A stretch of 26,362 bases of DNA, taken from NCBI GenBank assembly GCA_031409335.1, contig JANNWY010000074.1, positions 1 to 26,362 of the forward strand. The letters run 5' to 3'. Each line of letters begins with the position of its first letter. Within the stretch, counting starts at the first letter, position 1. The notes under the pieces were generated by a model. That model made no database searches. It saw nothing but the letters and a program-made list of their open reading frames with translations, and had not been told where the DNA came from. The position numbers and the translations under genes are program-made. This DNA comes from Chthoniobacteraceae bacterium (lineage in GTDB: Bacteria > Verrucomicrobiota > Verrucomicrobiia > Chthoniobacterales > Chthoniobacteraceae). Below are positions 18,763-26,249 of this stretch, one piece after another.

Positions 18763-19599
18763 ATGTATTTCCACTCCAGAACGCGCGCTACGGTTTGGTT
18801 TTTGTCGTTGTCGTCAATCCTTCTGCTGACAAGCAGCGGAACGCTGCTTTCCCGTCTCCCGGAGCCGGACGCGCTTTGGTGGGGGACGATGACGCACAAC
18901 AGCGGGCAGGCGCTCGCCTCCTCCGCCGGAAGCCCCATCGCGGTTGTCGCGAAATACAATGGCGTGATCGTCGCGCAAGATTCCGTGCCGAGTGGCTCGA
19001 CGACGTATGTGCTGAAGGTGCCGCTCGATGACAACTTCGATCCTCGGGTACCGGGAACGGTGCGGCCCGGCGAGCGTGTGCGTATTTTCCTTAAGAACAC
19101 CGCGACGAATCTCGAATACGAGGCGCTCGAAACGCGCACCGGGCCGACGGTCAACGGCTCCGTCGTTTCCGGGCGCGGCGTCGTCTATACCCTGAACCTC
19201 AGCGTGCCGGAGAATTTGAACACCGGTGGGGCGCTGATGGCGGCTTTTGCCGTGTGGGCGCAAGCTTACCCGGCAGTGAATCCTTCGCTGGCCAATCGCG
19301 ACACCGACGGCGACGGCATGACCGACTTTCAGGAATTTCTCAGCGACACCGATCCGGCGAGCGGCGGCAGTGCGTTGCGCATCCTCCAGATTGCGCGCTC
19401 TCCGGGCGTGAACTCCATTCGCTTCGGGCCACTGCGGCTTGGCCGTGTCTATTCGATTTTTTACACCGCGACTCTCTCCAACCCGGCGTGGCAAAAAAAC
19501 GGCGAAGTCACCCCGTCGGCATCGGCGGCGGCGGTTTGGTTCGATCATGTTTCGGCATCGCCGCCCGGCTTCTACCGCGTGGAGGTGGGCATCCAATGA
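18763..19599 (+). CDS. Secreted protein: N-terminal beta domain + DxDGDG Ca-binding motif + C-terminal FYRV domain
   Basis: Hydrophobic signal-like N-terminus, LPEPDALWWG, DTDGDGMTDFQEFLSDTDP, ending in GFYRVEVGIQ. Its stop overlaps the next start (ATGA). Confidence 0.85.
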   Translation: MYFHSRTRATVWFLSLSSILLLTSSGTLLSRLPEPDALWWGTMTHNSGQALASSAGSPIAVVAKYNGVIVAQDSVPSGSTTYVLKVPLDDNFDPRVPGTVRPGERVRIFLKNTATNLEYEALETRTGPTVNGSVVSGRGVVYTLNLSVPENLNTGGALMAAFAVWAQAYPAVNPSLANRDTDGDGMTDFQEFLSDTDPASGGSALRILQIARSPGVNSIRFGPLRLGRVYSIFYTATLSNPAWQKNGEVTPSASAAAVWFDHVSASPPGFYRVEVGIQ

Positions 19600-23558: not shown

Positions 23559-26249
23559 ATGAAAACTGAGTTATTCTTCCCAAAACTCATCGGTCGCTAC
23601 CCGTCATTCTATTGGCGAATATGCTTCGCTGTTGCTCTGTTGATAGGCGCGGCATTGGATTCGTTCGGCCAATCTCTCTACTTTTACGCGAGGCCTTTCG
23701 AGGCTTTCGAGGGAGACGCGGTCGTGTTCACCTATCTGCCGACGCCGCCATCTCGTTCGGCATTTCCCGGTGGTCGTCCGGCGGGAGTGCCGCTGGCGCA
23801 GGTCAGGAAATGGAAATGGGACTTCAACGGCGACGGGACTTGGGATGAGCAGAAAGAAGTCGGAATCAACGATGTCACCATCGACCAGCTCAATGCGACT
23901 TGGATCGCAACGACCAATGCCGCCACCGCAGTCGGCGGTATCAATACTTACACACCGAGACTGCAAATCACCACTACGGCCAATGTGACGCTGCCGGTGC
24001 AGGTGGGTGTGACCGAGGATGTCTTCGGACTTGATGGCGGGACTGACGCCACGATCAAGATCAAAAAACGCTCGGTCGCCAATTCGCAAATTCGCGTCAA
24101 TTTCTCCGCAAACCCACGTCTCGCCCTGCCGGGATTGCCCAATGGAAAAGTGAAGCTGCTGCCGGATGTCAACCTGCTGGAAGGCGTGACCGGGACGATC
24201 AGCAGCTATCTGTGGAGCGTGTCCGGCGGCACGTTTCAAGATGGAACGAACAGCGCCAGCACTTCGCCGGTGGTCACCTGGCCGGGGGATGGCACCTACG
24301 ATATTTCGCTGACGATCAATTACACCGTCGCCGGGCAGACAATGAACCTCACCGAAACGAAGAAGGATTTTGTGCGCGTGCAGGGTGTCCCGAGCGACTT
24401 GCAACTCGGCCGGGCTTACCGGCGCGGCTTTCCAGAGACTTACGGCTGGGATGACATCATCACGGCCTACGGGGCGCTTGGCGTCGGCAATAATCGCTAC
24501 GTCTATTTCAATCATCTTGAAGACGCCTTCTTCACACAGCAGAGCGCATTGCTCAGCGCACCCACGGATGCCACGCAGCGGCGCGTGATGGCCGAAGCCA
24601 TTAACGAACTGCTCCAGGGCCAGAGCCTCATTGGCAATCAACGGCTGATTGAGGCGCTGCGGATCAAGTATCCGCGTCTGACTACGGACATCGACCCGGA
24701 GCAGGACCGTCTGAACCCACCGGCGGGTGTGCGCGATGAGACGGCGGCCATCGAAACTGCGATCCTCGATCTGCACGCACCGATCCGCTACGCGGCGGTG
24801 GCGGTTCGGAATTACGGCACGGATATTTTGCGCGTGGGAGCGCCATCGGGCGAGGAGCCGTTCCCGCAATTCCCGCAATATCTCTCCTTCTCCGATCCGT
24901 CACTCAGCCAGGCGCCGATCCCGATCAAAAATGAATACTGGCAGTTTGGCGGAGTGTTTGAACGCATGGCGTTGGGGCGGATGGAGAAGGCAAAAAAGCT
25001 TTTCCGCCTTTCGGCTCAAGACTCCAGCGCCCGCTCTGAGGCCGCCGAGGAATGCAAAGTGGCCGGCATCCAGAGCTATCTCGGCATGGCCGTGCTCGCC
25101 GCCGCGCAGACCGAACGGGAGTTTCAGAACAATGAGGGCAACCTGATGCTCGCGCACATGAAGAACGCGCGCGACCTCTTCGAGACGATCAACGCCGGGC
25201 TTAATCCGCTCGGGAACGACGGCAGCTTCGTTCCGAACGAGAGCTTCACCGCGACCTTCCAAGACGCGCAGGAAGCTGTGGCCGATGCCCGCGAAGCGGA
25301 GATCAACGCCCGGCAGGAGGATCGCACCTACGACCATTACCAGGCCGACCTCCGCAACGAGCAGCAAAGCCAGCGGGCCAGCTTCATCACGCCGCTCACC
25401 AATCTCACCGGTGTCGATCCCGTGCTCTACAACGACCTCAAGACCGTCGATGATCAGAACGATTACCGGAACACAATCAGGACGCGCGTGAATGCGCTGC
25501 TGACCAGCTATCCTAACGCGAACCCCGCGGGAACGGGAGAGTTCGGCTCGCAGGTGATCGGTGTTTTGGATTCCGGCATCGCGATCGAGCAGTCGGTCAA
25601 TCGGCTAACCAATCTTGCGCGGTCGATCGAGATCTCGCAGTGGGCGAACACGCAAGTGGACATCGCAAACGCCGACGCTACCGCACAACTGAGTGCGCAT
25701 GACATTGCGCGTGGGATCGCAAATTCAGTATCCTTTAGTACAGGCACCACCTTAGGTGTTCTAATATCCGCGCTTGGTCTTTCCAGTGGGACAGCTACTA
25801 CCGCTCAATTCACAGTGGGTGTAAGTGTTTCGCCAGGAAGTATAATTTCTGGCATTCTCAACGCCGACGACCGGGACATCCAGCGTCTCCAGTCCGCGCG
25901 AATCGCTGATATTCAACTTGAAGAGCAAACCCGAAAGAGCCTTCTTGAAGTCGCCAATCTCGTTCTCGACATCCGCCGTGCGAAGAATGCCTACGACCAG
26001 CAAAAGCTCCGCCTCGACCAACTGCTCTCGCAAATGGACCGGCTGATCGAAGATCTCGCCCACGCCCGCGATACGGCCTCCAGCCTTTATTTCCAAGACC
26101 CATCCTTCCGCGTCGTCGTCTCGCAAGCCCAGCGGCGCGCGGATGCGGAGACGGACTTCGCGGTGGACCGGCTCTATCGGCTGGCCAAGACGCTCGAATA
26201 CGAGTGGGCCGAAGCCTACCAAAATCCGGGATTGCTCAGTAGGTATTGA
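23559..26249 (+). CDS. Large secreted protein: PKD/Ig-like N-domains + helical coiled-coil region resembling a Tc toxin A-subunit channel; C-terminally truncated by IS
   Basis: Signal-like N-terminus, then WKWDFNGDG and SYLWS...P.VTW...GTYDISLTI (PKD-like). GLNPLG...FVP..SF, long heptad helices around a hydrophobic G/S/T-rich tip, and DFAVDRLYRLAKTLEYEW. The stop codon lies inside the IS end. Confidence 0.75.
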   Translation: MKTELFFPKLIGRYPSFYWRICFAVALLIGAALDSFGQSLYFYARPFEAFEGDAVVFTYLPTPPSRSAFPGGRPAGVPLAQVRKWKWDFNGDGTWDEQKEVGINDVTIDQLNATWIATTNAATAVGGINTYTPRLQITTTANVTLPVQVGVTEDVFGLDGGTDATIKIKKRSVANSQIRVNFSANPRLALPGLPNGKVKLLPDVNLLEGVTGTISSYLWSVSGGTFQDGTNSASTSPVVTWPGDGTYDISLTINYTVAGQTMNLTETKKDFVRVQGVPSDLQLGRAYRRGFPETYGWDDIITAYGALGVGNNRYVYFNHLEDAFFTQQSALLSAPTDATQRRVMAEAINELLQGQSLIGNQRLIEALRIKYPRLTTDIDPEQDRLNPPAGVRDETAAIETAILDLHAPIRYAAVAVRNYGTDILRVGAPSGEEPFPQFPQYLSFSDPSLSQAPIPIKNEYWQFGGVFERMALGRMEKAKKLFRLSAQDSSARSEAAEECKVAGIQSYLGMAVLAAAQTEREFQNNEGNLMLAHMKNARDLFETINAGLNPLGNDGSFVPNESFTATFQDAQEAVADAREAEINARQEDRTYDHYQADLRNEQQSQRASFITPLTNLTGVDPVLYNDLKTVDDQNDYRNTIRTRVNALLTSYPNANPAGTGEFGSQVIGVLDSGIAIEQSVNRLTNLARSIEISQWANTQVDIANADATAQLSAHDIARGIANSVSFSTGTTLGVLISALGLSSGTATTAQFTVGVSVSPGSIISGILNADDRDIQRLQSARIADIQLEEQTRKSLLEVANLVLDIRRAKNAYDQQKLRLDQLLSQMDRLIEDLAHARDTASSLYFQDPSFRVVVSQAQRRADAETDFAVDRLYRLAKTLEYEWAEAYQNPGLLSRY

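Follow-up and report, generated by a model that had tools for sequence, protein, structure and literature searches.

A candidate compact Tc-type injection toxin with its own fibre, encoded at an interrupted locus of a Chthoniobacteraceae bacterium

The contig JANNWY010000074.1 of a Chthoniobacteraceae bacterium (assembly GCA_031409335.1) ends in the first four genes, g1 to g4, of an operon which, with a probability of roughly 0.7, encodes a compact Sec-exported injection toxin of the Tc (ABC) type furnished with its own fibre. The window analysed, 26,362 nucleotides, is the whole of this contig (C74 in our numbering) in a 7.9-Mb genome of 326 contigs. An insertion sequence (IS) interrupts g4, and the operon continues on a second contig, C300, with the remainder of g4, a peptidyl-prolyl isomerase (PPIase) and a gene for a TcB-TcC fusion (BC). 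Since the fusion, with its hypervariable tip, and the PPIase share the operon with the TcA-like g4, there is little doubt that the locus is a complete Tc-type A + BC injector.

Gene organisation of the locus

The features of the window that belong to the operon are as follows.

18763..19599, plus strand: g1, 278 aa, no Pfam match
19596..22556, plus strand: g2, 986 aa counted from ATG, with Pfam domains
22607..23539, plus strand: g3, 310 aa, Pfam Collar (E 6e-18)
23559..26227, plus strand: g4, N-terminal ~889 aa; the open reading frame (ORF) itself is 23559-26249, its tail end being read from the IS
26228..26362, minus strand: end of a multi-copy IS1-family element inserted in g4; the contig stops inside the element

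The inverted repeat of the IS begins at 26228, an end common to 11 contigs of the genome, and the final ~7 residues of the g4 ORF come from the element. The opposite IS end, on contig C300, encodes an IS1 InsA zinc ribbon (E 4e-6), and the two ends are flanked by an 8-nt target duplication. Full-length g4 homologues have ~1,070-1,250 aa (136 matches), and their last ~280 residues match the minus strand of contig C300 (16995-16156) at 61-80% identity for 8/8 queries. The g4 of the window lacks a TcB-binding domain because the IS cuts the gene and the remainder sits on contig C300. This IS-split copy is probably non-functional, and the system is probably inactive in this genome.

On contig C300, the g4 remainder is followed by a rotamase-family PPIase, the BC gene and a g1 paralogue (g1'). 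The BC protein, 2,269 aa, contains SpvB, TcdB_toxin_midN, FG-GAP and RHS domains according to Pfam, with no match to TcdB_toxin_midC. The joined operon thus reads g1-g2-g3-g4-PPIase-BC-g1', and the same order occurs uninterrupted in another genome (G071). Sheath, tube, baseplate and spike genes were absent among the 17 window ORFs and 4 C300 ORFs scanned, and no contractile-system family was seen recurring in the locus maps, whose ORFs were only partly Pfam-scanned.

A preliminary description of the window had correctly recognised four co-oriented genes (one ATGA overlap, intergenic distances of 50 and 19 nt), the mosaic nature of g2 (P-domain, carboxypeptidase-regulatory-like and PKD domains matched in Pfam), the tail-collar identity of g3 and the possible presence of further genes beyond the IS. 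The g4 ORF of 896 aa is not a complete gene, as the IS cut at 26228 and the length of the intact homologues show. The absence of any TcB or RHS gene, which the preliminary description reported, is an artefact of the contig break at the IS. Its proposal of a cell-tethered pore-former lacking TcB and TcC finds no support at this locus, where the same operon holds a TcB-TcC fusion and a PPIase.

The TcA-like subunit

The g4 protein comprises a leader, two Ig/PKD domains, a helical shell and a long helical channel hairpin with a variable tip. It has no Pfam match, and no Tc-family sequence match was obtained in Pfam, NCBIfam or PDB sequences. Its likeness to TcA, suggested earlier, rests on predicted structure. 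When the predicted model of an intact homologue (P0002) was compared by Foldseek, the matches listed from ranks 1-22 were all TcA, and residues 568-1169 of the model were colinear with TcdA1 2012-2516 in the structure alignment. As judged from this model, the g4 family matches TcA in its helical channel and its TcB-binding beta domain. Mean identity reaches 0.65 in the TcB-binding domain and 0.74 in the segment that precedes it, which places both among the best-conserved regions of g4.

The 1,177 residues of the P0002 model are fully used by the leader, two Ig domains, helical bundle, hairpin and C-terminal domain, and the loci offered no recognisable second tcA-like gene, g2 being judged from its sequence only. 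A distant g4 family of 900-1,000 aa, which is without PKD domains, was related to the close family by profile search (E 5e-150). In other members of the g4 family, NHL, FG-GAP, Ig or WD40 modules are fused straight to the channel, and in P0151 a g2-like part is naturally fused to a TcA-like chain. These fusions, in which modules are joined to the channel, suggest that binding is the task of the N-terminal and accessory parts. By analogy with TcA, g4 may assemble into a pentamer.

Companion proteins of the TcA-like subunit

The g2 protein is laid out as a leader, a 'GWNL' domain (~30-215), an Ig-like and unclassified core (~216-555), a P-domain, a carboxypeptidase-regulatory-like domain and PKD. 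With 141 homologues found and the gene present in 41 of 42 long loci, its co-occurrence with A, together with the single fusion P0151, makes g2 a putative adaptor or partner of the A subunit. The 'GWNL' domain is also inserted right before the RHS core of BC in six loci (L064, L065, L067, L071, L073 and L077), and a resembling insert is found in the BC of L001; it is possibly a shared docking module.

The g3 fibre has a conserved ~130-aa N-terminal domain and an exchangeable C-terminal part, which is a tail collar here and in half of the complete fibres (34/68), with a length range of 74-673 aa. Its N-terminal domain matches Bdello_MAT_N weakly, at 17.6 bits for g3 and 15-21 bits in four fibres against a cut-off of 60. 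In 44 of the 48 cases that could be tested, the fibre gene immediately precedes A. It is likely, with some reservation, that the fibre is physically part of the injector, to which it would be attached and for which it may choose the target. Two or three tandem fibre genes occur per locus in L006, L014, L067 and L084, suggesting several target specificities.

The PPIase is SurA/PrsA-like, and a lipobox is present in 18 of 52 loci as compared to 1 of 203 controls. The g1 protein has a signal-like leader, a small N-terminal domain, also present in g1', and a DxDGDG-containing C-terminal domain. It is an accessory component, its N-terminal domain being the least constant member of the set (22/42 long loci). 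The profile of the C-terminal domain (DxDGDG ... FYRV) matched 53 frames in the own genome, 46 of them ending at the stop; no Pfam model was found for it, and it is a candidate phylum-specific C-terminal sorting domain.

Signal-like leaders

Leaders were scored by a crude heuristic of hydrophobicity and charge, with internal windows as controls. All four window genes passed (4/4), in agreement with the Sec-type leaders ascribed to them earlier. Among M-start full-length g4 homologues 88/105 passed, as against 26/420 internal control windows; the corresponding values for g2 homologues were 75/98 and 34/392, and all 38 M-start members of the distant g4 family passed. A hydrophobic leader was present at 37/37 BC starts examined, and that of the PPIase was judged by eye. 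Nearly all subunits thus appear, by this heuristic, to have signal-like leaders. Export of the subunits by Sec may be expected from these N-termini, and the complex would then have to leave through the outer membrane.

Payloads and immunity-like ORFs

The tips were surveyed in 22 complete BC genes, two duplicates being left out. The PxxxxDxxG motif was correctly placed in 21 of them and mis-picked in one. The tips are hypervariable, only one similar pair being present among the 22. Matches above the Pfam cut-off were NLPC_P60 (L009, L078), Colicin_E5 (L075) and Lipase_3 (L007), weak matches were an M91 peptidase (L047) and an ADP-ribosyl cyclase (L051), and most remaining tips are unclassified. 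The tip of the own genome, 189 aa with 37% Gly+Ala, has a strongly hydrophobic segment; this composition suggests a membrane-active payload.

In six of the 22 loci an ORF of 81-187 aa abuts the BC stop. None of these small ORFs matches a known immunity family; by their position they are immunity-like, placed as immunity genes would be. Most Verrucomicrobial loci are without such an ORF.

Recurrence of the gene set

The alignment query yielded 22 genome loci and 34 metagenome loci, the titles of the former naming Verrucomicrobia, Opitutia, Limisphaerales, Pontiella, Kiritimatiellae and Lentisphaerae, with one unassigned. The g2 gene lies within 5 kb of A in 33/38 cases, and the PPIase is the next gene in 29/48. 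In several loci, the g2-fibre-A module is doubled ahead of a single PPIase and BC. The distant family adds 24 loci from SAR324, Colwellia, Oleispira, Bermanella, Oceaniserpentilla, Binatia, Acidobacteriota, Deltaproteobacteria and others, with the same set rearranged to PPIase-g2-A-fibre-BC. Among the long loci (42 of 80, at least 13 kb each, including some duplicates or close kin such as L011/L034 and L047/L049), g2 was present in 41, the fibre in 41, the PPIase in 37, BC in 29 and g1 in 22, and g2, fibre, A, PPIase and BC were all present in 26. The two checks proposed with the preliminary description, co-occurrence of the genes in other genomes and structural similarity of g4 to TcA, have thus both turned out positive.

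BC was absent from the full 10-kb flanks of five distant loci. The close family is rare. With this genome counted each time, it occurs in 2 of 301 genomes of the phylum and in 2 of 61 relatives, and it was found in none of four same-genus genomes, all of them incomplete. Copies of g2, g3 or g4 are frameshifted or partly deleted in L014, L017 and L021, by decay or assembly error. In four Gammaproteobacterial loci (L069, L071, L072, L073), two additional genes stand upstream of the PPIase, one for a g1-N/TSP3/propeller protein and the other a small ORF of lipoprotein-like character.

A second, distant module (L086) lies on the minus strand of the own contig C52 (1634-13624), with a g2-like gene, a fibre with an S74 chaperone, a 2,576-aa frame and then a g1-like gene. 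In its C-terminal third, the large frame shows homology to the mini-TcA proteins (hhalign 99.2%, E 2e-19). This giant paralogous family occurs in 23 of 201 genomes of the class, with a clear adjacent BC in only 1 of 17 loci.

Elsewhere in the window, an ECF sigma factor and then a Ser/Thr kinase-WD40 protein (13371-18085) lie ~680 nt upstream of g1; this pair was not observed to accompany the other loci regularly. A small GTPase and two roadblock/LC7 genes (3921-6704) are presumably MglA/MglB-like.

Proposed mechanism and alternative explanations

A working scheme can be drawn from these observations. The leaders, recognised by the heuristic, would take all subunits across the inner membrane. 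In the periplasm, folding may be aided by the PPIase, which is SurA/PrsA-like and, in about one locus out of three, a lipoprotein. The TcB-TcC fusion would form an RHS cocoon and, as in TcC, its tip may be cut at the PxxxxDxxG motif. The g4 chain, with its predicted fold, would form a TcA-like oligomer around the helical channel, and the cocoon could dock on the C-terminal beta domain. From its co-occurrence and the one fusion, g2 may stand in for the missing outer half of TcA and carry trimeric fibres, whose variable ends would select the target. Binding would then lead to insertion of the channel and threading of the tip into the target cell; in a Gram-negative target, a tip that is a cytoplasmic RNase would have to get through two membranes.

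The system is probably used against microbes, and against bacteria in at least some lineages; on whether its targets are bacterial our judgement is evenly balanced. NlpC/P60 tips, a colicin-E5-like tip and small ORFs in close linkage, all present here, are characteristic of systems that act between bacteria. The same machine could instead be directed, like classical Tc toxins, at eukaryotes such as protist grazers, algae or fungi, the fibre binding eukaryotic glycans, which we regard as the lesser but still appreciable likelihood. The scarcity of immunity-like ORFs in Verrucomicrobial loci speaks for such targets and weighs against an antibacterial use, and the lipase, M91-like and ADP-ribosyl-cyclase-like tips, the last two being weak matches, can act on eukaryotes. 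As far as its accessible text goes, the dbTC survey likewise describes Tc loci without immunity genes and with eukaryotic targets (PMC7861908). Eukaryotic targets accord poorly with the NlpC/P60 tips (one with weak CHAP and endolysin-like matches), the colicin-E5-like tip and the small ORFs linked to BC in six loci.

Two other explanations concern the architecture. The locus might be an ordinary Tc with signal peptides whose TcA is split (type II-like), g4 and g2 representing the two halves (g4 the one like TcaB/YenA2) and the fibre an adhesin in loose association. The alignment of g4 along YenA2 (9c4k_B 127-1344), which is of similar size, the P0151 fusion, which mirrors an unsplit form, and the recognition of split TcA genes as a type in the accessible text of a review (PMC11435725) are in its favour. 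This is nevertheless unlikely, as the families matched by g2 are all of the Ig-type, P-domain or PKD kind, none of them Tc, and the fibre is as constant as g2 (41/42) and duplicated along with each A copy. Less probable still is that g2, fibre and A constitute a surface-tethered adhesion or pore apparatus without a cocoon, BC being an optional passenger, the idea closest to that of the preliminary description. The five distant loci lacking BC in their flanks count for it and against the injector, and the giant family keeps g2-like, fibre and g1 genes where an adjacent BC is rare. Against it stand the high conservation of the TcB-binding domain and its preceding segment in g4, and the doubled A modules, which share one nearby BC, so that BC may simply sit farther away.

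If the compact injector does serve an antibacterial use, interbacterial warfare would gain its first Tc-type machine and the signal-peptide SpvB-RHS toxins the delivery device that they have lacked, and a wider giant family in Verrucomicrobiae would share the adaptor-fibre design of the injector. A multi-phylum class of antibacterial nanosyringes, in which a half-size Sec-exported TcA is combined with exchangeable fibres, an Ig-rich adaptor that holds them and RHS payloads, part of them accompanied by immunity genes, is proposed tentatively, its chances being somewhat short of even. The family escapes Tc hidden Markov models (HMMs), is half-size and seems to use general secretion with targeting handed to a fibre, and bacteria may be among its targets. 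Three matters become testable with it: the entry of signal-peptide SpvB-RHS toxins into target cells, the partner of MAT-type fibre N-domains and a minimal Tc translocator; native work is possible, since L071 is intact in the genome of a named isolate.

Comparison with known systems

As known from Proteobacteria and Firmicutes, Tc toxins are large machines that lack leaders and act on eukaryotes, and we know of no signal peptide on their subunits. The present system resembles the Tc/ABC complexes (Photorhabdus TcdA1-TcdB2-TccC3, Yersinia YenTc, TcaA/TcaB) in an A subunit with a channel hairpin and a C-terminal TcB-binding fold, as predicted by the model, in a B part with SpvB, midN and propeller, and in a C part with RHS core, aspartyl autoprotease motif PxxxxDxxG and hypervariable tip. 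It departs from the Tc family because the full-size shell (~2,500 aa, with neuraminidase-like and receptor-binding domains) and the leaderless subunits are both missing: A has ~900-1,250 aa and is unseen by Tc HMMs, and signal-like leaders stand, by heuristic or by eye, on A, g2, BC and PPIase. Moreover, B and C are fused, A is constantly accompanied by PPIase, Ig-rich partner and fibre, immunity-like ORFs occur at some loci, and the hosts are environmental lineages. Tc release is reported to depend on lysis (PMC10847048). The dbTC survey left B-C fusions out and, in its available text, records no immunity genes; the hosts that it lists are mainly Proteobacteria and Firmicutes, and 'Verruco' does not occur in the main text (PMC7861908). 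No description of the system was found in literature titles and abstract openings, and supplements of Zhang 2012 or dbTC could list some loci; the accessible text of a 2024 review (PMC11435725) and of a giant-gene preprint (10.1101/2023.11.21.568195) does not describe it.

The BC protein matches the 'TcdB/TcaC pathway' polymorphic toxins, in which signal peptide, SpvB, integrin-like propeller, RHS and variable toxin form one chain and for which lentisphaerae are among the hosts; the available text gives no cognate A subunit, fibre or adaptor, and 'TcdA' has 0 occurrences in it (Zhang et al. 2012, PMC3482391). The locus provides a candidate delivery machine for a subset of these toxins. The Bdellovibrio MAT fibres share with g3 a signal peptide, a conserved ~130-aa N-domain and swappable tips, sometimes with S74, and the anchor of their N-domain is stated to be unknown in the part of the paper available (PMC10769870). 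The g3 match lies below the family cut-off, and the fibre gene here is part of a toxin operon in which a candidate anchor, g2 or A, is encoded next to it. From extracellular contractile injection systems and tailocins the locus differs in that its injector is a predicted Tc-type channel, no sheath, tube or baseplate being found among the scanned genes. Its analogy with them is functional, as these systems also achieve the fibre-guided delivery of a variable payload.
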